Positions 45-50,800 of a DNA stretch of 64,000 bases are shown piece after piece (position 1 is the first letter of the stretch; the number at the start of each line of letters is the position of its first letter). Position numbers and translations under genes: made by a program. Location: NCBI RefSeq assembly GCF_037042905.1, contig NC_087250.1, positions 22,508,001 to 22,572,000 of the forward strand. Reading direction: 5' to 3'. The notes below the pieces were generated by a model. That model saw only the letters and a list, made by a program, of their open reading frames with translations, ran no database searches and was not told the origin of the DNA. The stretch comes from Lytechinus pictus (Eukaryota).

Positions 45-3000
45 GTTCTACTAGAGGGTGTGGCAGGTGGTAGTGATGGTCATATGAGCCTTGATGATAT
101 ATCATTTACACCTGGATGTGTAGTCTCACCAGACCAGACCCTACCCATTAAGGTTACTCCTTCAAGTAAGTACTGCCATTAATTTTACAACACAATGTTG
201 CATTACTAGATACGCACATTTATGTTTTCCACTAATTTGTTTTTTAATGTTAAATGAAGATTTAGTTTACACAGGATGTGGTCACACCAAATGAGACCCT
301 ACTTTTCGAATAAATATATCCTTGTATTGTACAACATTACAACGTTGTATTACTAGATATGCACATTTATGCTCTGAATGTGGAACAGTGTGAAGTTTGC
401 ATCGGATGAGTAATCTCACCCGATCAGACCCTACACACTCCTGCCAATAAGTGTATCAATGAATTGTACAACCACACACGTTTCTGCTCTAAAAAAAATT
501 GTGAATGTTTAACAATGATAAAATTTGAAGGATGGAATAAAAATATTATTGATTGTTATCTGTTTATTTCAAGGTGCCCCTCACTGCAACACAGGTGAAC
601 GAGCTTGTGATGATGGATCCTGTCTTGATATTACTAAATTCTGTGACTTCAAGTTTGATTGCAACGATGGCAGTGATGAGAAAGAATGTCGTAAGTTGGC
701 AAAGCGTAATTTTAGGTTAATATGTATATTTTGTAATATTTGTAGCTTGTTTTATATACATGAAATCTGATATTCAGTTAGCGCCATAAGTGTCACTGGA
801 GAGGGTGTTCACTCTTTAAATCCGCACCACTATTATTAATAACAATAATATTTTTTTCTTTTGAAATTGAGTACTGTAAGCTATATTGTTCATAGCCTAA
901 AGATAAAGAAAAAATTAACCAAAATTCACTTTTGTTTTTATTTTTTACAGCCTCAGTATGTAGATTTTAATGTGATATGTACTCATATCTATTATTTATT
1001 TTTATCACCTTAATATTTGTATTCCAGTGTTGTTCATCGTCTAAGAGTAGAAGAAAAAATCAACCCAAATTCAATTTTGTTTTGCTCTTTTACAGCTTCG
1101 GTATGTACATTTGAAAATGATATGTGCTCCTGGGAGCAATCTCTAAACGATGATTTTGATTGGCTGAAACACAATGACTCTGATTCGTTGGAATACCTTG
1201 GACCAGATACAGATCACACAATGAATAGTCCAGATGGTGAGTTATTAAATCTCCTCTCACTCTCTATTTTTCCTTCTCTCCCTCCCTCCCTTCCTCCCCC
1301 CCCCCCCCCTCTCCCTCCAAAACAAAATTTGTATTCTGGAAAACAAAAAAAATTTGCTGTTGTCAAACCTATGTTCTCGCAACGCTGCTAGCACTGAATG
1401 ATGTCACAGACTTTGGGATGGTGATTTTTTTTTGCCTGTTTGCTGAGACATGAATGCATGTAAGCAAGCAAACACCCAAGATCCTCTCTGAGGGACCTGG
1501 TAATGAGGATATTAAAATGCCGTACTAGCACTAGCGCATTAAGGGGGAATCAAACCCGGGTCACCAGAATCCGAATCCCCCATTCTATCGACTGAGCTAG
1601 AAACCTCCATATAGGACAGTGAAAAGTGCAAGATAGCCCAATTTCGAAACCTGCTTCTTTGAGTTATTATCAAGTAAAAGGCTTGACTGTCAAGCAATGA
1701 GAGTATATAAGCCTAGCTGCCTTGAATTGTTATGTTTTGTAATAACTTATAAAATAGCTCATAAGCTGTTAATTGGTATATGATTTGTCATTTTCACATT
1801 ATATAGCTCATAAGAAGGACAGACCTTGATAGGTCATTGTCCTACTGTCTGCCCCTCACATCTGCCTTATGATAGTTTTAACCTTGCTTTGTTTTTTGTT
1901 TTTTGTTTTTTGCTTATTGTGCTGTATATATATTATTTTGATATGTTCTTTGTCATTTTTGAGAGATGTGAATTAAGTTGAATTTAATTGAATTCAATAA
2001 GCTTTTAATTGGAGATGATTGGATTATGATTCATTAATTTCACATTTAGCTTCAGTTATGATCTCATGTTCATGACACAGTTAATGAATATGTGTTCTGG
2101 TTACATTTTAATCTTTTAAAGGAATTTACTACTTTGTGGATGGGACTCAGCAGGCCAGCGCACAATCAGCCAACCTATTCGCAACCCTGGTTGGCCCACG
2201 GTTCAGCCAGGCTGGTCGTATGTGTACCGCATCGGTGTGGTATTACTCGTATGGTGTGGAGTATGGTTCGCTTGCTCTGAAGCGCAAGGTGCTTACAGAT
2301 GAGAGGACGCTGATGGTCGTGAATGCCGGGAATACTGTGGAGAGCATGTGGATGAAAGCAGAAATTCAGATTCCACAATGTCTAGTGGACTTCCAGGTAT
2401 GGTTTCTTCAAATTTTATAGAGGGTACTCCACATGTTGTCATGGTTATAATAGGGATTACTAATATGAATGATTGCATTAGGATATCTACTTGATGGTTG
2501 TGGATCCTGGGAATGCTGTGGAGAGCATGTGGATGAAAGCGGAAATTCAGATTCCACAATGTCTTGTGGATTTCCAGGTATGGTGTCCTCAAATAGAGGA
2601 TGACAGTATTAGCAATGATCAAATTACAATTTCTACTACTACTAAAAATGAAAATAGTCATAATAATGGTGATTACAGACAACAAAGAGGTTGAAGATTG
2701 CAAAGATAATGAATGAAAAAAAGTGATGAGGGAGGAAGAAAAGAAAGTAGAAGAGGGAGAAGGAAAATAAAAGGATGAATGAAATGAAAGATCAAAAGAA
2801 AAAAGATTAGGAGAAAAGGAAGAGCAAAAGAAGAAAAATGCTTTAAAAAAAAACAAAAATGAAGAAGAAGTAGTAGTAAGAAAAAGATGAGGAACCAGAA
2901 GAAAGAGTGAGATCTTGTAATTATTTCATCATTTTTTTTTTCCTTTTGAATTTAGTGGATAAATAATTTCTAAATGTGTTATGATAATTATACGTGCTTA

Positions 3001-4937
3001 TATACTATTGCTTAACATGAAAGTGTAATGTTGCCTGATGTCACTATCTTAACATCTTTCTTTCTCACTCATACTTTTTAATCATATCTCTCTTTTTTTT
3101 CTTCCTCTCTCTCTATCCTTCTTATCGTAGTTCCTTATCACTGCAGAGAACCGCCAAACCCAACCCTATGCTGGAGGCTTCGCTATCGATGATATACGAT
3201 TTGATAACTGCGCATACGACCCATATACTCCTGTAACATGCGAGGTCGGGGAAGCGAAGTGTGGTACCGGCCAGTGTTATCCAGCTAATAACAAGTGCGA
3301 TTTTACAAAGGACTGTTGTCTTGACAGTACAGATGAGTCAGACTGCTGTAAGTTGATTAATTAACTTAATTGATTAAGTTTACTGAAAATATATAATTAC
3401 TTCATCAAATTGAAAGTTGATGAAGCATATGAAAACCAAGTGGCAGTCTGCCCTTCTGAGCATGCTCAGATCAGCTCACATCTATTGTAAATCCAGAGCA
3501 TTGTGACATCATTACCTCTGTATGTATAGAGGGCACCCTACTGACCATGCTCAGTTCACATCTAATGTAGATCCAGAACATTGTGACATCATTATCTCTG
3601 TATTCGTGTGTGTCTGTCTATGTGTATGTCATCATTCTATTGAAGAACTTTCTCTGAATATTCTTTTTGAAATACATTTTTTTTTCCTTCAGCTCCAGAC
3701 AACAGTTAAGGTATCTAAGAGTTGAATAATAGTGAAAATAAATACATATCTATTTGTGTTTTCTTTAGCTGCCTACAATAGATGTGATTTTGAGAGTGGT
3801 CTGTGTGACTGGGATCAGATGACAGAAGATGATCTAGACTGGACCACAGTCCAGGCCTCTACATCATCCTACCTCTCTTTTGATCATACATTAGACAGCA
3901 ATAGTGGTAAGGAAACAGATGGAATACACAATGAGGACTATTGTATTTGCTGTTGTTGTTGTTTCTTTGTTAAGTTGTTTATTTGTAGTCATTGCTTGTA
4001 AATTTCCTTTTGTGCAGTACCCCAAGTAAAACAGTGTTTGATTTACTGACGGGGTCATTCTCAGTAAACAAAACATATAGATAAGTAAATAACAGTTTTG
4101 TTTACTCCAATTTTAAAGGTCTTAATTTTCTTCAAACTTACCCTTTGAAATTTTCTCTTCATTTTGTCACACTTATAAAACATCTCTCTTTCTTGTGTCT
4201 CTCTCATTTACTCACAATTATTATATTTTTCTTGCTCCCACTTTTTCCCTCAATCTCTCTCTTTATTCCTCTCGCATTCTCTCTCACTATCTACTTTTTT
4301 CTCTCCCCTCACGCATTATTTTCTCTCTCCCTTGCACATGTTTATCTCTCGCTCTCTCTCACTCTCTCTTTCTCTTTCCATCACTCTCATCCTCTCAGGT
4401 TATTTCTTGGTAGTCAGTCAGTACCAGCAATCATCACCGGGTTCATCTGCTCAACTTGGTGGTTTCATCATCAGTCCAGTGACAACTGGATGCTCGGTAA
4501 GTCTTCATCCTCTACCTAAGTAAAAAACAAACCTCCCCCTCCCTCCCTCCCTCCCTCCCTCCCTCCCTCCCACACATCCACATGCACACACAGTTACAAG
4601 TTGCTATGCTTAATGTTGCATATAGATAATTCTAAAATCATACTTTTGGGTTTGATCTGGATAATAGAGGAGGAAACGCCACACGATTAGAAGTTGTAAT
4701 GGTAGAGCTTGGAGCAAAATAAATCTTGTTGAGATAATATTACACGTTGTTGTAACAAGATCAATAATTGTTGAAGTGTTTGAAGCAGTACTCGGTGTAG
4801 CAGGAGTAGAGCTTGTAGTGATTGCAGCAGTATTAGTAGCAGTGCACATTGTAGACATAGTAACAGGAGCAGATTTAGAAATAGTAGTTTTGCTAGAAAA
4901 GGTATTAGTTGTATTATAAGTAGTAGTAGTTGTTGTT

Positions 4938-4989
<52 letters not shown>

Positions 4990-5031
4990 AAGTAGCAGTA
5001 GTAGCATTAGTAGAAGTAGCAGTAGTAGCAT

Positions 5032-5067
<36 letters not shown>

Positions 5068-5109
5068 AAGTAGCAGTAGTAGCATTAGTAGAAGTAGCAG
5101 TAGTAGCAT

Positions 5110-5165
<56 letters not shown>

Positions 5166-8100
5166 CTAGTAGTAGTACTAGTACTAGTACCTAGTAGTGA
5201 AGTAGTAGTCATTGTATTAATAATAGTATTAGTGAAGTAGTCAACATATTACTTATAGTATTAGTAATAGTAGTATTAATAGTAATAGAGGTCAATGTAG
5301 TCATACCAGAAGGAATTTATGGTCATATCCCAGATAATGATACATCTAAAATAACATCTTCACACACCCTATCATACAGATGAGGTTCTACTACTTCATG
5401 AGTGGAGATGATGCATCCATAGCCATTAAGACTAGGACTCTAATAGGAGGTCACATGACCGAGCAATGGGGAATGTCAGGTGACCAAGGATTGACATGGA
5501 ATCGAGGATCACTCCCTCTTGTCAGTGATGATGCATTCCAGGTAATGGTGTAAAAAGATGCTGCGGTGTCTTGAAAATTTGTGTCTTTTATGATATATGT
5601 GCCAATAACATTGATAACTTTATCCCAAGACATAGAAGATAGCATAGGCTGTAAGTAAATATTGCTTGAATCAAATCTTTGGTAGATGTGTACATATTGG
5701 AATTTTTTTATTTGTAATATGACATACTAATTTGTATAGTGCAGAAACTGTGTGCATATATTCTTTCACACCCAATAATACAATTAAATCTGTCTATTAA
5801 GTCTACCCAAATGAAACAGACGAGTGGCCATTCTAAAATATGTATTACTTCCAAATGGATGACAATTTTGGTGGCCACTAAAGAATGGTTTTAACTATGG
5901 ACAATTGGCCACTAAGACATGTTTGTCTGTACATATGCCACCAACATCTATCATCATGAGAGGCTTATGGGTCGAAAAGTTTCTCGTAAAACGTACAAGA
6001 TAGCACAGGCTGAAAGTGGGAATTGAAGTGTTAAATGGATACCCGGCTGGATGTAAAAGACTATGTAGTATGCCTACGAATTGAGTGTTGGAAATCTGGT
6101 TGGAATGCTCCCCAGGGAGTGGAGAAAGTGGATACATTGTATGCGGGCATGCAAGGATCCGATGATGACTAGGATGGTAATAATTGCACTGTAAAGTGCA
6201 TAGAAACAAAGTTTAATAAGCGCTATATAAATGAAACTATCATTTTGTTATTCTAACAATATAGTTGATTGAATGAATCCCTTTGGCAAGGAAGAATAAG
6301 GTTTAAGAAATACATGTATATGTGAGATTCCATTAAAACTTGGTGTTTAAGTGAGGATTGTAATCACTGGTGAACCTAGGATTTTCCAGATAGGGGGCAA
6401 ATTTTTTGGAGGATATTTCGTCCGCGAAAAAATTTGACAAGCAAAAAAAAAAAAAGGTCTTCAACCCAAAAAAAAGGATTTCTTACCAGAAAAAAATTGA
6501 CAAGCCAAAAAAAAAGTCTTCGAATAAAAAAAAAAAGATTTCTTACCAGAAAAAAAAATTTACAAGCAAAAAAAAAGGTCTTCGAACCTCAAAAAAAGGA
6601 TTTCTTACCAGAAAAAAAACTGACAAGCAAAAAAAAAAAAAAAAAAAGTGTTCAGGTTAAAAAGATGGGTCACACGTCTGTTTTCATTGCATTTTGTGAC
6701 TCGTCATTGGGGCAGGGATACGTCCCCTGCGTGAGTTGTGACTCGTCAGGGTGGCAGTCTGCCCCCCCCCCCCTCAGGTACGCTAGTGATTGTAATCACT
6801 CTAAAAGAGAGACTCTGTGATTGAAGCGTGGTGCTGAGTCCTCTGTGATGACCAGTTGTTCAGCAGTGGCATCACAATAAAGGCTCAACTTACTATTAGA
6901 AGCACGAAAGGAAGTTCTTTTGAATTAAGTTAAGTCATTTTTTAAAGACCACAGATGTCTTTCATTTTTTTTTAGACCACAGATGTCTTTTTTTTACTTT
7001 AGAGAAATTAATTAGATACAAAAAAATGCCTTGACCCGGGCAAATATTTGTTGAGGAATGCTAGTTTACCAGTACTTGAATGTATCAGTGTATTCTTCTT
7101 GGAGATCATTCCTCATTTCTCTTCTCTCTTACAGGTTATCTTTGAAGCAACTAAAGGATTAGATACCAATGCCTTCTTAGCTCTTGATGACATTTCATTC
7201 ACACCCGAGTGTGTCCAATCTAGCACCCCTCTACCAAGAAGTACTACCACCCCTCCATCAACCACACCCACTACCAGAGGTATTTTTATTACCCCTCAGT
7301 TTCATCTTTACAATCCTATATTACCTTTAAAATCGACCACATCCATTACCAAGGGTGTACTTTTACCCCTTAATTCCATTAGTGCTTTCTAATTACTCTT
7401 GATGATTATCATTCACACCTGAGTGTGTAAAATCTAGTACCCCTCTACTAAGAAGTACTACTACCCCTCCAACAAGCACACCCACTACCAGAGGTATTTT
7501 TATTACCCTCAGTTTCATATTTACAATCCTATATTACCTTTAAAACTGAACACATCTATTACCAAGGGTGTAGTTTTACCCCTTAATTCCATTAGTGCTT
7601 TCTAATTACTCTTGATGATTATCATTCACACCTGAGTGTGTAAAATCTAGTACCCCTCTACTAAGAAGTACTACTACCCCTCCAACAACCACACCCACTA
7701 CCAGAGGTATTTCTATTACCCCTCAGTTTCATATTTACAATCCTATATTACCTTTAAAACCGACCACATCCATTACCAAGGGTGTACTTTTACCCCTTAA
7801 TTCCATTAGTGCTTTCTAATTACTCTTGATGATTATCATTCACACCTGAGTGTGTAAAATCTAGTACCCCTCTACTACGAAGTACTACTACCCCTCCAAC
7901 AACCACATCCACTACCAGATTTAATATGATTTCATCGTTAAAATCCCCATTGGACACTTTTTTATGACGGGTTATAGTCTAGTACCCCTCTAACAAGAAG
8001 TACTACCACCCCTCTACCAACCACACCCACTATCAGAGGTATGGTATTACCCCTTAATCCCATCTTTAAAATCCCCATCGGACACTTTGTTATAGATAGA

Positions 8101-11100
8101 GGGTTGCAATCTAGTACCACTCTACCAAGAAGTACTACCACCCCTCCAACAACCACACCCACTACCAGAGGTATTTTTATTACCCCTCAATGTCATCTTT
8201 ACAATCCTATATTACCTTTAAAACCGACCACAGCCATTACCAAGGGTATGCTTTTACCCCTTAATTCCATTAGTGCTTTTTAATTACTCTTGGTGATTAT
8301 CATTTACACCTAAGTGTTTAAAATCTAGTACCCCTACGAAGAAGTACTACTACCCCTCCAACAACCACACCCACTACCAAAGGTAATATGATTGCATCGT
8401 TAAAATCCCCATTGGACACTTGCTTATGAAGGGTTATAGTCTAGTACCCCTCTAACAAGAAGTACTACCACCCTCTATCAACCACACCCACTACCAGAGG
8501 TATGGTATTACCCCTTCATCCCATCTTTAAAATCCCCATCGGACACTTTGTTAAAGAGGGTTGCAATCTAGTACCACTCTACCAAGAAGTACTACCATCC
8601 CTCTACCGACTACACCCACTGCCAGTGGCATGTTATTACCCCTTGATACCATCTTTACAATCCTTTTCTATTATATGATGCTGAATATTTTCATTCTTAC
8701 CATTTCAATCAATAATGGCATTTGAATGATCACCCAATGTAGAATATTTGAGCCCCTTCTGTTAATCAAAAAGTCCTGTTATTTTGAAAATTGCCAATTT
8801 AATGTTGTTTTTACAGTGACGTCTCCAAGCCAGATAGAGACAACAGTGACATCGACCACCCCTAGAGAAAAGCCTACACCAGATAGTCAGACGGGTGGAA
8901 ATTCAGGTTAGTTCTGCTTAACCCGTAGATTCGCCGTCTTTCCTTTAAAAAACATTTTGTTGCAATTTCTTTTTTTCCAGGATGATGATGAGAAAGACAA
9001 AGAATGTACTGAAAATGTTCATACCAATACCAGTGCATAGATGGTGCCTTTTAATAAAAAACAATAATTTTAGTTAATCATGAAATTAAAATTGGCAACA
9101 AAAAAACAACAGTAAAATCTTTGTTTCATACAATTTGACTGATTTTATATCAATATTTTTATGTTTTCTCAAGGCTTGAAAATTGATTAAAAATCCATGA
9201 TTGTTGCCAATTCAAAGAGCAAACTCAAATTAATTTTAATCTCATGTAAGCACTATACTTTTTTACGTCCTCTTGCAGAAACGGTTTACATTGCTGTTGG
9301 TGTTATCTCTGGGATCTTAATCCTTCTCATCTTCCTTGTTCTGGCCTACCTTCTGGTATCAAAGAAAAGAGGGTAAGTTAGTCAAATAACTTGCATGAAA
9401 TTGATCTCACCCAAATTTAGACATCTCTTAAAAGGCGAGAGTCGTGGATGTTAGCAGGAATCTTGCAAGTATCTTCTATTTATTTATTTATTTATTCATA
9501 AATCATTGTATTACATCTCAGATAAAAGTAAGGATTGAAGGAAAGTGATCTTGAAAGAAGCTTTGCAGGATTTCTGCTATAAGAGACATGGCATTGACTT
9601 ATATTACAGTGCTTTCCTTGGGCCCGTTGCGTAAAACTTTTGCCATAAAAAAACTGGCAAAAAAACAAACGCTGGCAAACAAATTTATGCTGTTGAAAAT
9701 TACACATTAAAAAACTCTGGCAAAAAATTCCCAATTTTTTTTATGGCAAAATTTTTATGCAACAGGCCCCGTAAGTTACACTTAACTCTTGGTGAAAATT
9801 TAATGAAACAAGTAATGATTTTCACTGACTACTGTAATTAAATAAGCTAATTAATAGAATCCTTGCATCCCTGATGTGACTTTTGGTGGCAGCGGTGGGA
9901 TATAAGCATACCTGGGTCCTGTGAACATAAAGATTAGCAACTGACCACGAGGCTAATTTCTAATTTATAGGGCCCTGATGGAGTTTTAGACCTTAGCTCC
10001 ACATTTCTTCTTCATGTTCAATTCTAGACTTTAAGATTTCAATCCCAACCCCACCTCCAAAAAACTGATTGATCAAGAGGGAGAAAAGGATTGAGAGAGG
10101 AGGTGGAGTAAGAGAGATATAGACTGAGAATGGCAGAGAGAGAAAAAAAGAGAGTAAGAGAGAGACAAAGAGGGCATTAGAAGAGTGTGAGAGAAAAAGA
10201 AAGATATAGAGAGTGAGAGAGAAAAAGAAAGAGACAGATAATCCTGATATAACTTCCGAATCCCGCGATACACAACATAACATCATGCCATCATACTGAT
10301 ACTGTTAGAACAAAACGGTAAGCACTTGCATTGATATTCCCTTCATTGTCTCTTTTTCAGAACTAAGCCACCGGTAAATGAAGTGAATATACCTGGTGCT
10401 ATGGAGAACCAAGGATATGATACTGATCTTAACATCACGACTGTAAGTATACTAATCGGTGCAGGAAAAACGTGAGGGTAACGGGGGCGCTTTCACCCTT
10501 GTGACAGCCGAAATTGCCCTTGAAATTCCTAAATTCTACAGTTAACCCAAGATCTGCTACATAAACAAACATTATTCAAGGACATTTAGAAAATGAATAT
10601 TTTACATACTGCAGAATAATAAGATATGCATTTGAAGTATAATGACTTGTTGAGCAAAAAATATAGACATTAAGGGAATAGACCCCGCAATTCAGTTCTT
10701 GACCCCATATGGCAAAAATAGCCCTTATTAATATGAATCTTTTCCTAGCCTGATACTAATCCAAGTAGGGGGTTGGGCAAGGGGAGGGGGCTCATCACAC
10801 TGAATTCATCTCAATTGGTAAATAGCATGCATCTTCCTGTTCAGAGGTGGATCTGTAAAGGTTTTTCATATTGTACGTCACTTCTAGAATATGGTCATGG
10901 AAGTGCTGAAATGCAAAAGAAAATGATGATATCATACTTAAATCATTTATCATAGAAATTGAAGAACAGTACATTATTTTGTAACAATCAATTACAAATT
11001 CATTGGCATCATTACAATTTCATTATTCCTTTATAAGTAAGATATTCATTATTACAATTTCATTATTCCTTTATAAGTAAGATATTCATTATTACAATTT

Positions 11101-12371
11101 CATTATTCCTTTATAAGTAATATATTAGTGATTTTTGCAAATATTTATGATTTTCCCTCCAGTTTGCAATGCATGATATTGATACCAATATGTTTGGAGC
11201 AAGTGGAACATACAACTCAAATGTAAGTATAGATGAACACGATAAGACTTAAATCGTGTATGTATAAAAAAAAATTATAAATACAGAATTCCCTAATTTC
11301 GTTTTACTACAGGGCCCCATTTAATAAAAAGTTGCTATGATAGCAAGCAACTCTTGCTCTAAAGTCTACTAACATGAAAACATTGAAAATGCTGCTTCCT
11401 GATCGGTCTTCCTATGAAAGTTGACATTCCAGCAAGGGTTGCTATTATGGCAACTTTTAATGAAAAAGGGCCCAAAAGTATAAACTGATAAAACTATATA
11501 TTTTTTCCCAGTCACATAACTACCACAAGACTAATCTCAAGGGTATATCATTGTGGGGTGTTTTTTTTTTCTTTTTTTTTGTAATGACTATGCGTGGTCA
11601 TAAAGTTCCTCAGTTATTGGGGACAAGTACATTTTCACATCTTTTATAGTAATTATAACAATATGCCACACATATATATCACTTAGGATAGTGTTTCTAA
11701 GCATTTCATGAAACAAGTCTCAATGACTCGTTATAAGCTACTGAAATCCTTGCATCTGATTGGCTTAGAGCAGACTAGTCAGTGAAAATCAATGAGAAGA
11801 TGCTTTATGAAACAATACCTAGGAGAGAGGGAACAGGGGAGTATTTCACAATCAGTGATTATAAATGACAACTGTTATAAGCTACTAAAATCCTTGCATC
11901 TGATTGGCTCAGAGCAGACTAGTCAGTGAAAATAAATGAGAAGATGCTTCATGAATCACTCTCCATTCTTTTCATTGACATCTATAGCTTTGGGGAGGTA
12001 GGAAGGGTATTTTGGTACTTACATCCAACTAAGGGGAGTTGGCCTCGATAGGTCTTTGGCCTTTGCCAATCCCCTACATCCACTGTATTTTGGTTTTACC
12101 ATTTTCTTTTGTCATTATATTTCTTCTTTTTTTATGCATTGATTGAATTTTGTCATTGTTTATGTAATTATTATATTTTGAATAAATGTGAATAAAGTGA
12201 ATTATGAATAAATCACCCTTCTAAGTCATGTATTTTTATTTCACTGCTGATTATTCCTAAATCTTTTTTTCTTCCTCAACTTTACAGATATCTGGAAAAG
12301 AAGGCTTCTCAAATCCTACTTATTCAAACCCATCAACGGATTATCCGATCAATAACGATTCAACGGCGTAA
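45..12371 (+). CDS. MAM and LDL-receptor class A domain-containing type I membrane protein (MALRD/MAMDC4-like), 3' portion; 5' end lies outside the window
   Basis: Exons join(45-165,574-690,1096-1236,2122-2396,3131-3347,3769-3906,4399-4496,5380-5541,7135-7279,8817-8906,9279-9372,10361-10442,11163-11222,12288-12371). All are AG/GT bounded and phase-consistent, giving 607 aa plus stop. Domain order: MAM end (SLDDISFTPGC), LDLa (CNTGERACDDGSCLDITKFCDFKFDCNDGSDEKEC), MAM (CTFENDMCSW..FAIDDIRFDNC), LDLa, MAM (CDFESGLCDW..LALDDISFTPEC), Thr/Pro/Ser stalk, TM (VYIAVGVISGILILLIFLVLAYLLV-SKKR), cytoplasmic tail with FSNPTY. Confidence 0.9.
1440..1608 (-). mobile_element. tRNA-derived SINE fragment
   Basis: The minus strand reads GGAGGTTTCTAGCTCAGTCGATAG..GACCCGGGTTTGATTCCC (Pol III A and B boxes), followed by a non-tRNA body. 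Confidence 0.55.
4790..5290. repeat. Compound (TAG)n microsatellite with a repeated 21-bp interruption unit
   Basis: Long GTA/TAG run, with AGAAGTAGCAGTAGTAGCATT repeated 4 times. Confidence 0.95.
6030..6250 (+). mobile_element. SINE/LINE 3' fragment
   Basis: TGCTCCCCAGGGAGTGGAGA body and AAGCGCTATATAAATG tail. A reverse-orientation homologue lies at ~31430-31570, and tail-only pieces at ~40205-40300 and ~43025-43090. Confidence 0.5.
6365..6788. mobile_element. hAT-like MITE with an internal ~62-bp A-rich tandem repeat
   Basis: Exact 8-bp TSD ATTGTAAT (6357-6364 and 6789-6796). Imperfect TIR CACTGGTGAACCT/AGGTACGCTAGTG. The unit TGACAAGCAAAA..GGTCTTC..GATTTCTTACCAG repeats 3-4 times inside. 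Confidence 0.75.
7181..8645 (+). repeat. Exon-derived tandem array (9 copies of the 3' end of exon 7135-7279 plus intron)
   Basis: The unit TCTAG(C/T)ACC(C/A)CTCTA..AGAAGTACTAC.ACCCCTC..ACCACACCCACTACCAGAG ends at 7279, 7493, 7706, ~7920, 8038, 8170, 8382, 8499 and 8627. Confidence 0.9.
11008..11125. repeat. 39-bp tandem repeat, 3 copies
   Basis: ATTACAATTTCATTATTCCTTTATAAGTAAGATATTCAT-like unit repeated three times just upstream of the acceptor at 11162. Confidence 0.85.
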
Positions 12372-14040: not shown

Positions 14041-14629
14041 TTAAAGGACAAGTCCACCCCAACACAAATCTCATTTGAATAAAAAGAGAAAAATCCAACG
14101 AGCATAACACTGAAAATTTCATTAAAATCGGATGTAAAATATTAAAGTTATGACATTTTAAATTTTTGCTTAATTTCACAAAAAAAGTTATATGCACATC
14201 CTGGTCGGTATATGCAAATGAGGGAACTGATGACGTCACCTACTCACTATTACCTTTGTATTGTATTTTATTATATGAAATATTTAGATTTTCTCCTCAT
14301 TTTCCCGTGAAGTAGAGTTTTATTCCTTACTGGAATTACCATTCTTTTGATATTTTATGGTGGTCCTAGTTGTCAAATCTGTAAAATTAGAAATATTGCA
14401 TAATTCAAACGATAAAAAACAAAAAGAAATAGTGAAGAAAGGAAGGACATTGAATCTCTCATATGCATGTCACTGAGTCGTGCATATAACTCTTTTGTGA
14501 AAATTAAGCAAAACTTTAGAATGTCATAACTTTCGTTTTTTTAATCCGAGTTTAATGAGATTTTCAGCGTTACACCTCTCTTTTGATTCAAATCAATGTT
14601 TGTCTGGGGACGGTGGACTTGACCTTCAA
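14041..14629. mobile_element. Kolobok/T2-type non-autonomous TIR element (MITE), family A
   Basis: TTAA|AGGACAAGTCCACCCC ... GGTGGACTTGACCT|TCAA with long imperfect inverted arms. TTAA TSD plus AGG termini is the Kolobok/T2 signature. Near-identical copies occur elsewhere in the window. Confidence 0.8.
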
Positions 14630-19755: not shown

Positions 19756-22700
19756 ATGGGTGGTTTATTCTCATCTGAAGAAGTCAACATGGACGGCAAA
19801 GAAGCTACGTTCATAAGAGGTAAGAAAACTAGAAATAGTACTAGTAGAAGATTTGGGAAGACATTTGAGGGCCTTGCATAGCCTAGGGCTAATGGATGAT
19901 ATAGGCCTACCCTTGAATAAGATTTTTTTTTTTAATGTAAAACCTTTCTCTGATCTTGGTACTCTCTTTATTTGTCTTTTAAATTACAAATTTAATAGGT
20001 GGATATTAGAAATCTACATTATCTTTAAATTCCAGCTTATTCCATACTTGAGAATACACAGATGTTTTAGGTGTTGATCAGGTTCTTGATAAAATAAATC
20101 TTCCTGTAAGATCTTTAAGAATGTTAACTGTCCACACATAATGGTTTCCGGACATACATTATATGTGTTCGGAAGTATGAACTGAAACAGTCGCAAACAG
20201 TTTTAACAGATTTAACTGAAAAATCTTAAAGTTTTTTGGTTGGTTTGTTTTGTTATTGGGTATTCGATTCGCAAGGTACAGGTTACAAGTCAGATTGAAA
20301 ATGCTGAGTAATCTTTAGTAAAAACATTAAGTTGGGGGGGGGTGGGAGGTTAACATCAGAATTAAAGAATGAGACAGTAATTATTTTTTTGTAATAGATC
20401 TATACTATGAATATATCTGTTTTGTGTTTTACTTTTTTTATGAACCAGGAATAACACATGACAAGTGTGTTGTAGTCTTCTCCAAGACTCACTGTCCATT
20501 TTGTCACAAGGTGAAGAAAATCTTTGAGGACTATGACGCTAATTATGAAGTTGTCGAGCTGGACAAACGTTCTGATACGAGTGCAATGCAAGCTGTCCTT
20601 GGCAAAATGACTGGTGCTTCTACGGTAAGAACATGCTGATCAAATATTAAGCCTTATGTCTATATGATCTTTTAATCTTCAAATTGGCCTTATTAGCTAT
20701 TCTCTTGTTTTCAATTTTCTTTTTTGAAATCACGTACTTGGGTAAGGGAGAGGTGCTTAAACGGTAACATATAGTGATTCTGATTTCTCAAATAAATTTA
20801 TTTTATTCATCTTTTATCCTTCTAATTGGTAACATAAATAAACAATTTGGCAAATTGAATTAAATACTTTAAAAAAATTAAAAGCCTTTTTTGTTCAGCT
20901 TTCGTCTACCAAATTTGCAACAAACATTTGGGACAATGAAGTATTAGAACCCTGATTTAATCAGCTTTGGCAACATTCTCTTTAAATATTTTGTATGTAT
21001 TTATATTTATCAGAAATGGAAAGAAAACCCTTTGTGAAATGCTCCCCTAATGAGATTGTGAGAATTTTAGAAACTAAATATTTGAAACTAATTTTTGAAT
21101 AAATGAATATGTTACAATGGCAATAGTATAAATTTACACATGTCGACTGTAGTCAAGAAGTCATCTCTAGATTATTGTGAGCAGCACTAATTTTTTTTAC
21201 TTTCCTCCACAGAGGTACTTAAAAAGCATCCACAGAAGTGTTGTTCAATTTGCTTTAAATTTACACTTAATAATATAGACATTGCATTTATGCTAATACG
21301 ATAAAATCAGCACAAATCAGGCCTGATATTTAAATAGTATGCACTTCGGTATTTTATAGAAAATCCTGCAACAATCAGTTCAAAGGTTCACTTGACATTC
21401 TTAAAGTCTATGCATACATTACTGTGTATATATGTTCTCTTAATGTGTGTGTCTCCACCAAAATCATTACCTGTTGGGTTTGAATGTGTATCATATGATT
21501 TCAATATGTTTTTATTTAATTTCTCTTGCATTTGTCTGTAGTGTGCTATTATAAAGCCCTGTGTCCTTTATCCCCTTGATGACATTTTCCTCTTGTGATG
21601 TCACAGGAGGCAGAATTGCTTTGCAACTTGCTATAACTATGTAGTCTGCAGGCACAGACCCTAAGTTTTCACAATTTGCATAATACACAATGCAGAGTCT
21701 GAAGAAGTGAGACTAGATTCACTATGTGGCTGACACAGAGAGTCTTTGGAGTCTAGTCTTCACCCCAGACCTGTTATTGGTTGAAGTGTCAAACATATGA
21801 GTCTATGCTTGCAGACTAATTATTTGCCATTATTGCATCACAAATTACAAGTCATACAATACCATCTCACAACCTTAATAACAACAAAAAAAACATTTTT
21901 GACAAAGAAGTAACTGCATTGTATGACACTTTTAACCCAATAGGTTATGATTTGTTGATGGAACACGTACGTGCATAGCGCCAACTTAATGTGTTCCGCC
22001 ATCTTGCTTGTTGGTTGCCGATAAAATGCGCATTTTCAGATTTGTTAACGCTCAGTTATTACCCATGACTGAAACATTGACCAATCAAAAACTAAGATTC
22101 TATAAGAAATATGAATATTCATATACGAAAGTATAAACATAGATAATTCAGTTTTATGTGAAATTTAAACCCAATACTTCAAAATATGGTTAGTTTTATG
22201 TCTCTAAAATGACCCTTAAAACCAGAATTTTATTACTAAAAAATAAAGGTTTTCCAAAGTTGCCATGGTAATGCGGTCTGAGATATAAAAGCTTAGCAAA
22301 CACTTCATTTCAGTGATCGAGGATGTATTTGTTTACGGTATACGTCTACATAAATTATAACATTTTTTTCCAGACCATGGATGAACTTTCAAAAAGAGAC
22401 ATTTTAGGCAATTTTTTACGATTTCCGGCAATTTTCTGACACAGGCACTTTGAAGAGGTAATTTTTACAGAATTAGAAGAAGACATCATGGATTTTCCTA
22501 ATTATCACGACGGATATGCAACTTACTCGTAAACAAATCAAACAAAGTCTATGATACATTTTCGATAATGCAAAAAGAGACATTCAAGTCTCTGATTGAG
22601 AGCCGCAGATTGAACATTCGCACGGCGCAATGGTAGCGTTTTCGCCGAATTCGTCGGGGCGAAAACTCCAAGCGAGCCGTACCACTCACCAGTCCCGAAC

Positions 22701-32744: not shown

Positions 32745-33135
32745 TCATAAAAATTGTTATGATATCAAATTTGCAATGACAGTTGAAAGCTATTAAAATC
32801 TTTCAATCTGATTCGCTGATACTAAACTTGTTATAGAAATTGTGTATTTATTAGTATAACAAGTCTTTATGGAAATAGGGCCCTCACAAAACTTGTTACA
32901 ATAACAAATTTGCAATATAAGGTACTAAAATTCTTCAATCTGATAGGTTGATTTATAAATTGTTATAGAAATTGTTCATTCATTGTCTTTATATGAAACA
33001 GCCCCATCACAAACACTTGTTACAATAACAAATTTGCAATGACAGTTAAAAGCTACTGAAATTCTTCAATCTGATATGGTTGATTTAGAAATTGTGTATT
33101 TCTTATCATAAAAAGTCTTTATGAAACGGGACCCT
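32745..33135. mobile_element. Three tandem copies of a ~130-bp short TIR element (GCTACTGAAATCCTT..ATCTGATTGGCTG family)
   Basis: Head-to-tail units with ACTTGTTA..CAAATTTGCAAT..TCAATCTGAT..TTTATGAAAC.GG.CCC. Dispersed relatives occur at ~9780-9880, 11700-11960 (x2), 27920-28044, 28328-28715, 30404-30543, 40560-40685 and 41080-41165. Confidence 0.65.
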
Positions 33136-41354: not shown

Positions 41355-41872
41355 ATAAGTATAAGGTGAAATACTTGGCCAATTTCTTGAAATTAATTCC
41401 AAAATTGGCCAAATATCTTATCAAAGCCCAAAATCAAAGTGAGATACCAATTTGCCTCATAAAGCAATGAATGGGATACCCGCCAAGAACAGTACTAAAT
41501 TCCCCATGAATGCTTTAATACAATAATATTGCTCTATATCTGGTCAAATAAATGTACTCTATAAGAAAGAATCTTGAATTTATGTACAAATTTCATAAGA
41601 GATATTCATCTCGACTTCAATCTTGATTATGGCTTGTCGTGAAAAAATAAAAACAATTTATGATTCCACGACAGTCCTTGTGCCTCACGCGGGATTCCGA
41701 ACAAAAAAACGAAAACATGAAAATAACTCTGTTACTCTGATTATTTTGTACACTGTTAGGCTCAACCACCTCTCCATTGCAAATATAAAATCTGTTAAAA
41801 GCGCATCATGGTACACGATTCTTTTGATACAAATAATTGCCTGGCTAGACAACAACAGTAGAGGGCACTATG

Positions 41873-44800
41873 CTACTCGTCTGAGTTGGCTTCTTGTTTG
41901 CTGTTTTGCGACGGCGAGACAAAGTGTTGCATCTGTTGTTTCTGCATTTGGAGGGGCTTCTTGACCTTGTCCGCTTTTCGCCATAGGGTCACTTCCTGTG
42001 AACAGAAGGGGACATAAAAAAATTGTAAACATTGTTAAAATTATTCAAGCCAAGAATAATTTTTTACATGGATAGCATTATAATTAATAAAAACCCTGAA
42101 ACCAGAAAAGAACGAGATGGAGCCACGTGGCCAAGATCTAGGGTTCAAATCCTGGTCTGAGGTAGTGTAATTTTCTCAAATTATTTATCTGTGATTATTT
42201 TCAATCCTACTATTCATATCAAGTTATTTTGAAGTACATGTATACTCTTTTATTACAAGCTATCTTTCTGCAGCCTGTCTGTCTGTCTACCTCTAACTGA
42301 TTCATAGATTTTCTTTCTTAAAGGTCAAGTCCACCCCAGAAAAATGTTGATTTGAATAAATAGAGAAAAATCAAACTAGCATTAACACTGAAAATTTCAT
42401 CAAAATCGGATGTAAAATAAGAAAGTTATGACATTTTAGAGTTTCGTTTATTTTTAACAAAACATTGATATGCCCAACTTGGTGACATGCAAATGAGACA
42501 GTTGATGATATCCCTCACTCACTATTTCTTTTGTTTTTTATTGTTTGAATAATATAATATTCCATTGTTTACAGATTTGACAATAAGGACCGACTTGACT
42601 GAACCATATAGTGTTGAACAATGCTTATTCCACATGTTCAGGGGGGAATAAATCGTTGTTTCACTTGACAATCAGGAGAAAATTAGAATATTTCATTCAA
42701 TAAAATACAAAAGAAATAGTGAGTGGATGACGTCATCAGTCTCCTCATTTGCATACCGATCAGGATGTGCATATAACTGTTTTATGAAATTAAGCAAAAT
42801 TTTAAAATGTCATAACTTTCTTATTTTACATCCGATTTTGATGAAATTTCAGTGTTATGTTTGTTGGATTTTTCTCTCTTTATTCAAATCAATATTTTGT
42901 TGGGGTGGACTTGTCCTTCAAGTTTAATTTACATTTGTTCACCAGCAAGTACTAGGTTTGAAGACAGACATTTTTCCTCATTTGTAATTTACCCTTTCTT
43001 GTACTTCTCTTTACTTTTGCTCTCTTTAAGCGCCTTGAGCATTTAATCAAAATGGAAAAGACGCTATATAAATCATATGTATTATTATTATTTCCTGCAT
43101 CTGAGCCATTCAACTAAAACAGCAAGGGAGTACATTTACATTGTAGGTTTAATGATCCTAGCTTGTGAAAGTGCAATTTTCTAACATTTTTTTATTGCTA
43201 TAAAAGATGGAAGAACCCTTCCCCCTCCCCAATATAAAGAGAGATATTAAAGACAAGCATTATAAAAGAACAAAAGGAAGAGTCAAAGAAAGAGAGAGAG
43301 AAAGATAGACTGACAGACAGAAAAATACAGACACAAAGACAGACGGACAGGGGGAAAAACAGAGAGACAGACAAGAGAGACAGACAGACAGACAGAGAGA
43401 CAGGGAGAGAAGGGAAGATTAGAAGACTAAATTTTTTCTGACCTGCTGTTTGAAGTACCGTCTTTCTTCCTCATCAACAAGTACAAGATTAAGGTAATAG
43501 CGAACAGAGAACTTCTTGTTGACGTCTCTCATCGTTGGCGTCAGCTCGTACCCCGAAAGGAACAGCCTGATGGGTATTGATTCACCTGGGGTCAAATGAT
43601 ATTCCACAGGCCAAAGGTTAAAAGGTTGATGACAACATAAACAAATTCATATTATGTAATACGGAATCGGAATATAGTGGCATGTACTTTTGGGGGGATC
43701 TACAAAAGATCAATAGATTTAATGCATGAAATTCATAGAAATATGTAATTTATACATGTAGATAACTAACAGAGTACTGCTTAAGTATCTTGGTTTAATT
43801 ATATCCTACATAAATTAAATCATGTATGCTGATTGGTTTAAATAGCATCATGTGATCAAACATATTCTCACTATTTTGTGATGATGTTGAAAATGAAACG
43901 CCCACTGAAGAAAAATTGCTATTCCATGACGTCAATGATGGAATAGTGCACTATTCCATCATTGACCTCACAGATCATGACGGCGCAATCACTTATACGC
44001 ATTCTGCATGCTGAGTGCGTGGCTTCAATCAGCGCAGCGGGTAATCTTGGTTCAGATTAAAAAAGGATAAACTACGAGTACAAGAACTAGATTATCAAGG
44101 ATAAAGTAGGATATAAAACAGGCCTGTATTTCGAAAGTATAGAGGGAATTATTCATCCTCCGTTGTACTGGCAAAATCACTATAATGTGAGATGAGAATG
44201 GTTAATCAAATAAGCCTCGTGGGTTTAACAGTTCCATAGTTACCTTATGCTCACAAAACCTACTGATGCACTCACATTTTGCTTGTGCATTTAAATAATA
44301 ACCCACACTTGTTACCTTGAATCAGCCTATAGAGTACCGAAGCGATGACGTCAGTTGCCATGGTGTCACGGCAGCCTGGTTCTAAACAAATGAACCCGGT
44401 GGGTGTTTCTCATTGGAAAAATGGCTGCTAACGAAATGTCATCACTTGCAACCTCAGAATGATGGTAATTTTTGCGAATACAAATGTGTAAAGGCAATCA
44501 TCCGCTGCGACTCTGTTTCGAACCAGCTGGTTCGTTGTCATGAGAGTGACGTCACACTTCGGTACTCTATACACCCTTGACTAATAAAGTCTCAGGCGTG
44601 TTAGAACTGTTCCAAAGGTACCTCATGACATGGGCATAATTATTACTAATGCCCTAAATGATGTGTATTATTTTTATACTATTACATATCAACACAAAGC
44701 AGACACATACCTCTGACTGGTGCACCATCCATGATTTCATATTTTGCTATGGTTTCATTTTCATTGAATGTGTTGGGACCTGAAAGATAAACAAAAGAAA

Positions 44801-47800
44801 ATATAATTACAATTGTATTTCTGTCTCTGATTCTGATTGAGACTTAGGACGAAGTTTGTTTTGGAAGTCATGCAAGTGATGCTCAATTCAATGTTCATGT
44901 TGCGTCTCTAAATTTCACAACATTGTAGGGTAGTGTTTATCCTCCATATTCATGACAGATGTAACGTAAGAAATAATTCGGTGAAAATTTTTATTCCATA
45001 ATAATAATAATATTCATGATTATTTCTTGTTTTGAGCGTTTCATGTACAGTTAAACCTCCCTATTTCTATGTGGGAGCCTGGTTTAGTTGGTCCAACTTT
45101 TCTTTAAATGAGAAGATCATGGGTTCCATTCCCAGCTATGGCATGTTTTCTTTTCGCAAGAATTTACCTACATTGTGTTGCATTCGACCCAGATATTGTA
45201 AATGAGTATTTGGCAGGATTAATTCCTTGAATGCACCAAGCACCGAAAACAGCATTTCAAGCTAAAGCCAGTGTAATAACGATACGATAATGCATCTCAG
45301 AAGAGATTATTTCTAGATAGATGGTGCTTTACAAAGGGACTTGGATATCATCATCCTGGCATTAGCTCAGCAAGCCTATTACACCACCCAAGAATTTTAA
45401 GGGATAAAGTCCTGTATTGTACCGATTTACCTCAACTGTACTGAGTGCAGCACAATCTATCATACCATCAGCTTCTTCTGATTTCATAATACATGTACAA
45501 TCATTTTTTGCTGCAGGATTAAAATAATTATGAGATAGCAACTAGCATTCCATAAAAAGTTAAAGAGAAATTCCAGTAGTTGCAGTAAACACTGATTTCA
45601 TGAGAAAGTCTGTAAAACCAGGCTTAATTGTCAGTATATCATCGAGGATCTAGATCTGGTACAGTTACATAAACTGAACTTTGTGAAATCTTGAAATCTA
45701 CGCTGAAAAATGTTCAGACTGAACTTCCCCAACACAGATAAGCGCACGTGGGACTGTGTATAATTATTGCTTTGAGCGTCGGGCCCCGACGCTCTACCCG
45801 AATCCTGTGCTTATTTGCTGATTTCTCAGCAATTACACAATTTCTTTCAGAATCCTTTGGCACATACGTTTTATTTATACAAACAGACACTTTGGTGGTC
45901 ATTTCATTGGATTCTGTACGAACTCATTTTGATATCGTTACCAAAACTAGCATTTACCTTTAACCTAGTTTTAATATGAGAATACCACTGAGTTTTCAAA
46001 GGAAATATCATTTTACCTGATCCAGTTGTTTCTCTTTTGATGATAGCTAGTTCCATGTGTTTGATCTTAATCCTTACCAGAAGGAAATAGATTTTACCAA
46101 CGATAACATCTTTGAGATGGTATCTGTAAATGAACAAACAGATGAACAAATTAATTAGTCAAATCAAAAATGAAAAAAAACCTTACGAGAAGAAATTCAA
46201 ATTTACCAACAGTTAGTATCTTTGAGAGATTATCTGTAAGCCAACAAACAAATGAGAAAAAAAGTCATATCAGATAGTAAATTGTATTTTATTTAATAAC
46301 TACATTAGCCGGCATGCTAAGAAAGCATTTACGCTTCTCATATTCAAAGAGATCAAATGGCTTTATCTATTATCATCACAGAGTATCACAATATAATACA
46401 TTCAAGGGCTGCACTCTATCACATGATAATCAATGAGATTATGCATCAAATATCACATGCACTTTGACAATTGAGCACAAGATTTGGTCAGACTTATATC
46501 TTTGTGAAATCCTCAAATTGTTCAGAGACATATTCAACTTTACAAACACCAATGGTTGTGAATTACTCTTAGAACCAGGTGAGTGTTTCATAAAGCTACT
46601 CACTTTGATTTGTTGTATTCAAATTCTATATGGAGGCAGTCTTCAATACCAACTTCCATCTTGATGGATGAGTTGACCTCGGGGTAGTGTGAAAGGGTGT
46701 GAACGACAAGATCCATCTCACGCACTGTGTCTGTCAATCTCTTGGTGATAGTTACCCGTAGAAAGTATCTGCAAAGGGTCAAATGTCACACGTAAAAGTA
46801 TAGTGTACCATCATTATCATTTTATCAAGGATTAACATGGAATATTATTTTTGAAGAACATAGACCATCTCAAGCACTGGGTCTGTCAATCTTTTGGTGA
46901 TATTTACTCGTAAAAAGTATCTGCAAAAGGTCACAGGTCAAGTTTCAAAGTTTAATCCTAAAACAATGAGAAAGGTTTAGTAGGAAGAATCTGCAGGTCA
47001 GTGTTCAGATACAAAAGTGTTACGTAGGAGTTTTACAGTGTCATCATTTTTAAACCTGTTAGACAATAGCTGGTTGAGTTATAGGAGGGAAGTGGATAAT
47101 ATTTAAACATTTTCCCGCCAATTTAATGATTGTCACTCTAAGAATGCATCTACACAGGGTTAACGGTCAAATATTAACAATCCAAAGCAAAGAAAGCTCC
47201 ATTGGCCCATATTCTAAACTCAGATTTAATTAAAATCCTGATCTAACATTGTGGTTAAACTATGGAAAGCAATTGTGATGCCAATCTCTCCTAGCAGAGG
47301 TTAACTTTATCAGCTCATTTAACACCTAATTCATAATAAATAAAAACTCTCTGAATAACCTGTTTCTTCACCATTAAAACATCAGTATACACGTCATTAG
47401 ATTTATGAGCATACAGGGTAACTACATATCGTGTATTTTTTTTAATCCAAGAAATGGTCTGTTGAGAGAAATGTGTGCCACAGCTAAAACCTGATCAAAA
47501 CAAGTGTATAATTTCAATGAATGTAAATAGATAATGAGATGATACTTTAAATTATATCGCGCACTTGTGAAGTGAAAAGACAGAAGTGAAACACAATGGT
47601 GTACCTACCTTAACCTGACATTAGCACCTGTGTATGACTCGTATGGTTTTTCTACGTTGAGGAATTCAAAGGGATAACTGGTTGATTGCGTGAGCTCTCC
47701 TGGTCTAGCAAGCTCTTTGACAAGCGATGTGAATTCATGATGGTTACCTCTGTCGTAATACAGCTCTACAAAAATAAAATGATTGTGAACCGCGAAAACA

Positions 47801-50800
47801 AATTAGAAAGTTAAAAACCTTAAAGTAGTAAATACCGGTAGGTGGATAGGTACATTTGACGAGAGATGTGAAACGATTGTTACCTCAGTCATAATACAGC
47901 TTGACAAAACTCAAAATATTGTGGAAAAAATTTGAAAGTTAATGAAACCAACAACAGCAAATAAGTGAACATTCACACACAATCTTGCTTATAATACCTT
48001 AATAATACATGAAAGCAGTTGCACTAAACACTTATCTCATGAGAAAGTCTGTAAAACCAAGGTTTATTGTCACTATATATCTGTGCCAGCCGCACAGAAA
48101 CGTTGTTAACCTAACAGAGCACTAACAGTAAGCCCAGACACATCTTTCGGATTGTAAAGTCAAAACAGTTATTTCAATGTATAAGTAATTCGTTGATTGA
48201 AGCACAGGGCCTTTGTTAGTGCTAACAACGTTTCTGTGCAATCGGTACTGGCTGGGATTCCACGTTTATTTAGCTTTCTTGCTGTAAATCCCCATTTTTA
48301 AAATCTATGGTGACTGTGATAACTTATAATGAAAAGCTTCTTGCAGGATTCTTGCGGGAAAGACATGGATCTGACTTTTTACATTAGACACCGTTCTCAT
48401 TATACATTCTAAAACTAGTTTACTGGAAATCGGTTCAGGAAACCAGTTTGGAAGATCGCTTTGCTAGCGTTCCCATTTTATCAGCCAAAAGTGGTTTGCA
48501 AAACCACTCTCAGTGGGGGCGACATATTTCGTGCGAAATTTGAAACCATAGCATAGACATTCTACACAGTGTGTGGAGTCGAGCGCTCAAATTGTGCAGA
48601 GAACGTTTCCGTAGAACGGTTGTGTCCTCACTTGCGCTAAAACCAGTTTTACAAGGCAAAGCGATCTTGAAAACTACATCACAAGGTGGTTTTCAAAACT
48701 GATTAGGAAGATTGCTTCCAAGACCGCTTAAGCCGTTCTCATTACATGTTAAACACGTTTCCAGTAAACTAGTTTAGGGCGGTAATGAGAACGGGGTCTT
48801 TGATGTTTTCACCTTCTTACCTATTTGACCAACAAACTCAATTCGGATGCCTTGATGTTCAAGTTTCTTGCCTTTAAGAGTGACATTAACCTTAAAAAAG
48901 AGAGAGAATGAACAAAAGTTCATCAATACAATTTAAAGGTCATATCAAGATAATAAAATGGTTCAATTCAAATTCAATTCAATTTACTATTATCTTTTTA
49001 ATTCATGCAATCATGACGTAAATATTTACAATCATACGTGTACCTGGAGTATTCTGGGGCCTCAGATCAATTTAAGAGTAGGTAGGCAGACAATGCAGTA
49101 CACACAATCAGATGGTAATTCATATGTTTCTATACATGCCCACTTTCCCACGGCCCATAAGCACATTGTACACATGTAGTAAGCAACATGTACAATGTAA
49201 GACTATCAATTATTTATAAATACTAAAACTTTTTAAGATAAAGGCTTGAACCGAACTCAATTCCATGTGAACATCTATGTAGCATGGAGCTGAAGTACAG
49301 ACCTTACCAAAGATAAGAAAATCAACGAGAGCCACATAAGCATATTGCTTTACGTCTCAACATCCAAGTAAATCCAAGTATAAAGCAAATGCGATTCAAC
49401 TCTTTTATTTTCTATATATTCTATAAACAATAAATATGCAAATTGATAATCTATTTTGTTAAAAATTGTTCTTTTATCATCAATATTGAGTTCCCTATCT
49501 TATTCAAGTTTGAATTTCATTTCCCTATGATCTAATTTTCATAAATTATGCAAATGAATCTAGAAAATTAATGGACATTGCCAATTTAAGAATCAAAATC
49601 AGATTAAATTAGATTCTATAAAAGTAACTATCTTACCCTTCCTGTTAAGCTCTCTCCGTCATAGAAGAGATAGAGTTTCTCTTTCCTGCCATCATCTGTC
49701 TTGATCTCTGCCTGCTTTCTTGTCGCGGCATCGTCGAGCGCGATGTCGATGTCGGCCCCTTGGCCAAGCCCAAAAAAGCTCTACACAATACAAAGAAAAA
49801 CACAAATAAAACAAATAATTCAAAACTCTTATGAAAAATGGGAAAAGTATTACTGCCATCATTTGTCGTGACCTGAGCTTGCTTTCTCGTAGCGGCATCG
49901 TCGAGCGCTGGCCCCTTGGCCAAGGCAAAAAAAGCTCTACACAATACAAAGAAAAACACAAATAAAATAATCCAAACTTTAGTGAAAAGTCGGGCAGAAC
50001 ACTATAAGTAGCAGAATTTGAATACATATATTAATCAAATTTTGACTGAAAGAATTATAAAAAGTTCAAAAAGATCTACACGATAAAAAGAAAAACACAA
50101 ATATAAAACAATCCAAACTCTAGCAAAAAGTCCAGCAGTATACTACAATTACCTTGACTAAAACGAATTAGAGGAAATTCACTCCCAATTCGTTTGGCTG
50201 AAGAAGGGGTAACATGCAATAATCAGAATTTTTTCCTGAAATTGATAATATCCGCTCTTAATCTGCTACATGTATATAGACCCCCTGTGTAAATAAAAGT
50301 GCTTCGCTTTGAACTTACCCGTCCAAATTTTACACGATTTTTAAATGGCATGATTATTCCTGAATAAACCAATTGCACACACTTTTCAGAAGAATTACTG
50401 AATGTAAGAATGATGTATATGCCAACAGTTATTAAAGCGAGAATGAAACAGTAGGAAATAAAATTGTTTCAGTATAAACCACTACCAGTAGAAGTTCCAC
50501 AAGTATGTCATAAATCATATCATAATAAATAAGCTCAAAATTATTTAATATTTAATATCTCAGATTACATGGCATTATTTAATTTGGGACAGTAATTTAT
50601 ACTATCATTTGTCTTTATCTTCATTGATGAAATTTTGTTTAATTTCAATGAGAACAAAGTTATATCTCAACTCTTGTCACATGTAGTTCAAGTTCAGTTT
50701 ATGGGAGGGAATTTATAAGCTATTTTAAGAGGAAAAGGTTAGCATTGACTATTTAAAAGCACTCATTGAAACTGGCAATACCACCCTACTGTAAGCTCGT

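Follow-up and report, generated by a model that had tools for sequence, protein, structure and literature searches.

What leaves a diverged, partial copy of an exon standing beside the exon itself? The question is raised by a stretch of 64,000 nucleotides from the sea urchin Lytechinus pictus (RefSeq assembly GCF_037042905.1, contig NC_087250.1, positions 22,508,001 to 22,572,000 of the forward strand; the window, numbered from its first letter), in which eight exons of two genes carry an 'echo', a tandem copy of one exon end together with the adjoining intron. One gene encodes a membrane protein with MAM and LDL-receptor class A (LDLa) domains, and its 3' part lies at 45..12355 on the plus strand with 14 exons in the window. 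The other is the housekeeping gene VPS26, at 54213..41872 on the minus strand, with nine coding exons of which exon 1 contributes the ATG only. The explanation that we favour, and to which we give an even chance, is that the echoes are 'mirage' repeats, neutral debris of duplication, whose excess at exon edges comes mainly from selection anchoring one of the two copies.

Echoes and background duplications

All eight cases that the first-pass annotation had picked out, at four MAM/LDLa exons and at VPS26 exons 2, 4, 5 and 6, were recovered by alignment. In each case the alignment runs across the exon–intron junction, i.e. the tandem duplication unit spans the boundary; the copies lie 109–215 bp from the true junction with 79–92% identity, and none of the eight is a copy of a whole exon. 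There are 17 extra copies, distributed 2, 1, 1 and 8 over the MAM/LDLa exons and 2, 1, 1 and 1 over those of VPS26.

In the MAM/LDLa gene (all plus strand), the first exon in the window (45–165) has its donor end echoed twice, by decayed copies at 255–371, where the junction is deleted, and 396–472, where the GT is lost; a single alignment crosses the junction, scoring 68 against a null maximum of 35. The acceptor of exon 1096–1236 is echoed at 886..984 (true copy 1030–1129, offset 144, 82% identity), with a decoy AG that ends at 950 and scores 9.2, compared with 10.0 for the real acceptor. The donor of exon 2122–2396 recurs head-to-tail at 2492..2651 (true copy 2311–2472, offset 181), the decoy donor being identical to the real one. 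Finally, the donor of exon 7135–7279 has grown into a minisatellite of eight copies at 7396..8664, with units of 214, 118 and 132 bp and a higher-order repeat of 464 bp; the spacings are 214, 213, 214, 118, 132, 212, 118 and 127, and six of the eight copies retain the GT.

The VPS26 echoes (all minus strand) are copies of acceptors. That of exon 2 (49780–49637) lies at 49850..49993 (offset 167, 87%), and the 20 nt preceding its AG are the same as at the real site; a second, fragmentary copy with an intact AG is found at 50068..50129. The echoes of exon 4 (47765–47609), exon 5 (46768–46604) and exon 6 (46123–46017) lie at 47855..47963 (offset 139, 83%), 46852..46954 (offset 152, 83%) and 46178..46272 (offset 109, 79%), respectively; the homologous AG is gone in the first and intact in the other two. 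The rule that acceptor copies lie upstream and donor copies downstream holds throughout, and it has no value as evidence: whichever copy adjoins the remainder of the exon is called real, which makes the rule true by definition.

An annotation-blind scan of the window for local tandem duplications gave 25 matches, against none in each of the two block shuffles that served as control. These matches were reduced to 18 events: six were merged as the 7181–8664 array and two as the exon 45–165 case, which the scan had seen as one exonic and one intronic piece and which was joined by hand, a join that the later alignment supports; two were dropped, namely an AGT microsatellite at 4702–5198 and a 35.6-bit match at offset 361, and one, at 26580, was added from Tandem Repeats Finder (TRF). 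Eight of the 18 events straddle a splice site, compared with 1.81 expected under random placement throughout the window (P = 1e-4). It is important to point out that this value, like every statistic given here, comes from one 64-kb window that was selected post hoc because the pattern was visible, and that the P values do not allow for that selection.

Units of 80–300 bp alone give an expectation of 1.63 out of 14 at splice sites (P = 3e-5), and shuffling the in-gene events within their own gene gives 2.6–3.3 expected against 8 of 10 or 8 of 13 seen (P = 4e-4 to 4e-3). Site by site, echoes occur at 8 of 46 splice sites and 11 of 390 control anchors (Fisher P = 3e-4), the anchors leaving out 450 nt around exons and 4 of the 11 control matches being part of the exon-derived array. 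The resulting odds ratio is 5–11, with lower 95% limits of 1.4–3.1, so that the claim of real tandem duplications over-represented at exon edges stands within the window, and tandem duplications are not equally frequent in its deep intronic and intergenic DNA. The glutaredoxin gene (19756..28191, plus strand, three coding exons) served as an internal control, with no echo at the four splice sites tested. That four of the seven internal exons of VPS26 are hit had been called surprising; it is so against chance (P = 7e-4) and ceases to be so against the window's own rate of 8 in 26 exons (P = 0.14).

The other ten events lie away from annotated splice sites, at a background of about 0.2 per kb, and bear out the earlier remark that duplications of similar size exist outside exon edges. 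In the blind scan and TRF they are found at 3451–3603, 6415–6637, 11007–11126, 11730–11958, 12361–12668, 15242–15347, 26580–26678, 32745–33135, 34184–34383 and 40688–40985, and unannotated or non-coding exons may lie near some of them. Three deserve separate description. The 100-bp duplication at 34184–34383 (plus strand) has in each of its copies an acceptor-like site of very high score (12.7 and 12.4 bits, where only 20 of the 6960 AGs of the window reach 12 bits or more), with a GT 28–29 nt further on, and could be the echo of an unannotated non-coding exon or the product of chance. At 12361–12668 (plus strand), a 162-bp tandem duplication starts 6 nt past the MAM/LDLa stop codon, at an edge between coding sequence and 3'-untranslated region rather than a splice site. 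Three near-perfect 40-bp copies at 11007–11126 (plus strand) stop about 37 nt short of the acceptor at 11163 and do not include it.

Fate of the copies

The VPS26 region at 45900–50300 was compared with four of the 24 sequencing runs listed: X1 and X3 as DNA contigs and X22 as RNA, with X7, which had almost no depth on VPS26 exons, left unused. The DNA contigs, from a source denoted organism A, are about 5–10% divergent from the window in intron-rich pieces, with many gaps, and about 1–3.5% in exon pieces; they are therefore from other individuals or a sister species. The exon 4 echo is covered by X1 records 4 and 5, and by X3 record 10 up to 47930; part of the exon 5 echo including the AG is present in the same X3 record (46884–47930); and X1 record 1 spans the exon 6 echo. 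The presence of these three echoes in independent contigs means that they are not assembly artefacts, an exclusion that applies to VPS26, to which the read check was confined, and not to the MAM/LDLa gene.

More generally, artefact or a pure chance clustering of duplications is very improbable as an explanation of the pattern. The post hoc choice of the window, the mere 18 events and the restricted read check leave some room for it; however, copies that are 8–21% diverged and carry indels are unlike doubled reads, three of the VPS26 echoes recur in independent contigs, and P is at most 0.004 under all six placement nulls.

The contigs also reveal differences between haplotypes. At the VPS26 exon 2 echo, where the window has 196 nt, only 46 nt are present in X3 record 14, which thus lacks about one unit, while the upstream fragment at 50068–50129 is retained (piece 50008–50284). 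Copies therefore come and go, and copy number differs between haplotypes, with the proviso that organism A may be another species. The exon part of this echo has diverged at 12 of 87 positions, against a haplotype distance of 6–8% (P = 0.006–0.044), which suggests a loss or a long-standing polymorphism rather than a recently gained copy. The exon 6 echo is uncovered in X3, with zero depth at 46194–46340; this suggests that it is missing there, coverage holes being weak evidence given the alignment filter. X3 record 9 departs from the window at 46145, and intron DNA is strongly different between haplotypes. In VPS26 intron 5 (46146–46597), one X1 contig matches, while those of X3 part from the window at either end, a hint that intron haplotypes are deeply divergent.

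Once formed, the copies decay. Mismatches between echo and exon number 26/175, 12/176 and 35/179 at the first, second and third codon positions, which rejects uniform change (P = 0.005) and is compatible with free drift in the echo together with synonymous substitution in the real exon (P = 0.10–0.13). The exon parts of the echoes contain indels and, in one instance, a stop codon. In the exon 7135–7279 array, the true unit differs from the copies at 7396, 7609 and 8099 by 3–6% in the intron half and 7–10% in the exon half; by analogy, this is the pattern that unequal exchange sparing the exon would leave, like the concerted evolution described for amphioxus (PMC3087553).

Many copies keep their splice dinucleotide, as the first-pass annotation had stated: 5 of 6 acceptor copies and 7 of 11 donor copies (12 of 17 overall) do so. 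Among the copies that could be scored, 12 of 16 are retained against a neutral expectation of 0.77 (P = 0.77), and retention is thus about what neutral decay leaves. On a scoring matrix built from the window's own sites, several decoys score equal to or above the real site, and use of any of the five intact decoy acceptors would bring in a stop codon. In the RNA run X22, no reads cover five echo bins (46194–46340, 46782–46928, 46929–47075, 47811–47957 and 49869–50015), compared with about 5–18 reads per exon bin, in a shallow data set that comprises a quarter of a run from another individual or sister species. The suggestion that echoes provide raw material for new exons accordingly found no support, in view of the added stop codons and the empty echo bins at this low depth, and the best reading is that splicing ignores them.

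All 14 MAM/LDLa exons align in order with residues 810–1411 of a Lytechinus pictus protein, with no insertions and no new junction; exon 45–165 has 39 of 40 amino acids in common with it, and one MAM exon matched this protein alone (96% identity, one of 45 candidates). A candidate micro-exon at 3693–3710 (plus strand), 18 nt with a pyrimidine tract, AG and GT, would, judged by eye, bring a stop into the MAM frame, and it is absent from the protein.

Could selection, nevertheless, keep the copies as regulatory decoys that promote unproductive splicing or enhance the use of the real site? Decoys that equal or better the real site, and the occurrence of the VPS26 exon 4 and 5 echoes in independent samples, might be taken that way. 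We consider the idea highly improbable, given that GT/AG retention fits neutral decay, that one echo is absent from another haplotype, that no RNA reads fall in the echo bins of the shallow X22 run, and that no effect on splicing is reported for amphioxus in the portions of PMC3087553 cited here.

Birth or survival at the exon edge, and its surroundings

The first-pass annotation had proposed a mutational process that duplicates exon edges at high frequency. The excess at edges within the window upholds one half of that proposal; the other half, a birth process targeted to edges, is not separable from a longer survival of exon-anchored copies.

The favoured explanation, survival, can be put as a sequence of steps. 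A background process makes head-to-tail duplications of 40–215 bp across the region, away from exons too. Those that fall within an exon or cover a whole exon would break the protein and be purged, while a duplication across a single edge would keep the exon whole and push the partial copy into the intron. The spliceosome would pick the site beside the complete exon, as RNA depth in the window and work on human F7 suggest, and ignore the copy; the allele would therefore be close to neutral, a preserved GT or AG notwithstanding. From then on, substitutions and indels wear the copy down; at exon 7135–7279 unequal exchange has enlarged it to an array, and other haplotypes can lack it, as at VPS26 exon 2. 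Since selection would fix one copy of each pair and curb deletions that reach the exon, edge pairs could remain recognisable for longer than pairs in fast-turning intron DNA. Picking the window for its pattern inflates the excess further.

How large a survival advantage is required? With the two most cautious nulls, a two-fold advantage still fits the data (P = 0.06 and 0.10), and the constraint on long deletions could exceed two-fold. Several observations weigh against the survival explanation. Three of the five nulls reject a two-fold advantage (P = 0.003–0.016), and the point estimates are 5- to 11-fold. The excess persists when repeats (about 13.7 kb of the window) are masked, with 8 of 14 events at splice sites against 1.93 expected (P = 7.5e-5). 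Edge pairs tend to be older than background pairs (median identity 82.5% vs 88.5%), but the difference is not significant (P = 0.31). Pooled divergence is alike in the exon part (73/530, 13.8%) and the intron part (61/421, 14.5%); anchoring therefore buys little against substitutions, and the argument rests on deletions. Finally, no relevant joint stands among the splice joints listed for X22, which are dominated by transposon joints and beyond which there are 145 more.

The alternative, a serious rival though the less likely of the two, is that the birth of short tandem duplications in this urchin favours positions across exon edges, several-fold over background, either because exons are islands of matching sequence between divergent homologues or because they are marked by chromatin or by fork direction. 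If true, purifying selection would itself be the source of a mutation bias, which would account for the repeated occurrence of mirages in marine invertebrates of high polymorphism.

The homology-island version of birth bias, our own proposal, is possible but rather unlikely. In a very polymorphic species, exons would be the stretches where homologous chromosomes still match; strand invasion during repair or meiosis would start or end there, enter unalignable intron and re-anneal out of register, leaving a 100–200 bp duplication across the edge. The odds ratio of 5–11 speaks for such a process, as does the contrast between introns (about 5–10% plus gaps) and exon pieces (about 1–3.5%) in the organism A contigs, and the background duplication 6 nt past the MAM/LDLa stop codon sits at another conservation edge. 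Mirages were first described in amphioxus, which is likewise very polymorphic. The echo of exon 2122–2396 encodes Asp like the L. pictus protein, where the exon in the window has Asn; a copy derived from another allele could look like this, but a later change in the real exon fits equally well, and the codon-position pattern requires no allelic donor. No young edge duplication is seen besides secondary growth of arrays, and at 10–20% divergence duplication breakpoints and junction microhomology are unreadable. Among the papers listed by one literature search, none dealt with such a mechanism.

Birth bias through chromatin, replication or transcription, in which breaks or slippage would concentrate at edges owing to positioned exon nucleosomes, the ends of Okazaki fragments or co-transcriptional R-loops, is unlikely. 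Edge units of 109–215 bp are near the lengths of nucleosomes and Okazaki fragments, and seven of the eight echoes lie on the higher-coordinate side of the exon whatever the strand of the gene (P = 0.07), with acceptor and donor sides affected 5:3 (P = 0.73). The size range, however, overlaps that of background units (85–162 bp in 6 of 10), shorter edge units would easily escape detection and might lack the branch point, and the side bias is non-significant and was spotted after the fact.

Should survival account for the excess, the echoes are ordinary debris; with the count and the presence/absence case from this window, the choice between birth and survival becomes a simple genome-wide computation.

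The three genes of the window, i.e. MAM/LDLa, VPS26 and glutaredoxin, each have an exon model with a single open frame and canonical AG/GT at all junctions, and the Pfam matches on them are MAM, Ldl_recept_a, Vps26 and Glutaredoxin. There are 96 open reading frames of at least 75 amino acids in the window, and the Pfam scan of non-exon frames covered one. Among dispersed repeats, a family of about 600 bp that resembles miniature inverted-repeat transposable elements, with long terminal inverted repeats, occurs at 14041–14629, 27039–27632, 42317–42922, 59469–60076 and 55988–56137, and several smaller families recur too. VPS26 intron 1 contains a large nested fold-back structure, and the window has several long palindromes; together these occupy 50916–52205, 52531–52746, 61406–61573 and 28824–28946. 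The element at 54908–55941, with short terminal inverted repeats (by eye), a 135-amino-acid frame and a weak zinc-finger match below the cut-off (E = 0.02), is possibly a DNA-transposon remnant.

Mirage repeats in other genomes

The urchin echoes belong to the mirage repeats, a known kind of structure: in amphioxus, tandem units span an exon–intron boundary, and their mechanism is called unclear (PMC3087553). PGBD5 is a further case (PMC3902484), and somatic length instability is a feature of the Adh3 mirage. Such echoes are natural tests of splice-site choice, some decoys being identical to or scoring above the real site and yet seemingly unused, and they can mislead gene predictors and read mapping.

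Two other systems share part of the design. The Rogers model of intron gain (PMC3265369) likewise starts from a short tandem duplication within a gene, with doubling of splice signals; it duplicates an AGGT site inside coding sequence and thereby makes a new intron, whereas the urchin echoes copy existing junctions. Intron gain of this kind was rejected for the window, where the decoy acceptors add stops, no new intron or exon is seen, and the MAM/LDLa gene has no new junction relative to the L. pictus protein. In intron 7 of human F7, the first unit of a 37-bp variable number tandem repeat spans the exon 7 donor, and the identical pseudo-donors after the real donor are silent because the most upstream site is chosen (PMC1557585); this provides a tested explanation for the tolerance of donor echoes. 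The F7 repeat differs in its much shorter unit, single locus and restriction to the donor side, and the part of that report cited here holds nothing on acceptor echoes or on frequency (PMC1557585).

The closest likeness remains that to amphioxus. As far as the cited portions of PMC3087553 go, both systems have units over one exon edge, at 5' and 3' boundaries alike; globin mirage units of 150–160 bp with 81–100% identity compare with 109–215 bp and 79–92% in the urchin; many, though not all, copies retain AG/GT (12 of 17 in the urchin); and copy number depends on haplotype, with concerted evolution within arrays. Splicing is reportedly unaffected in amphioxus (PMC3087553); for the urchin, a shallow run from another individual or sister species has zero RNA depth in five echo bins. 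Searches of mostly open-access literature listed no echinoderm mirage and no genome-wide mirage count. The urchin cases differ in coming from an echinoderm rather than a cephalochordate, and in that six of the eight are a single echo or an echo plus fragment, unlike the long amphioxus arrays; there is one eight-copy array, two cases have two copies, and five have one extra copy, as does BflGb9 (PMC3087553). What the urchin adds is a count against background (8 of 18 events, against 1.8–3.3 expected), which the cited passages of PMC3087553 do not give, and a case of presence and absence in a housekeeping gene of a laboratory-model genus.

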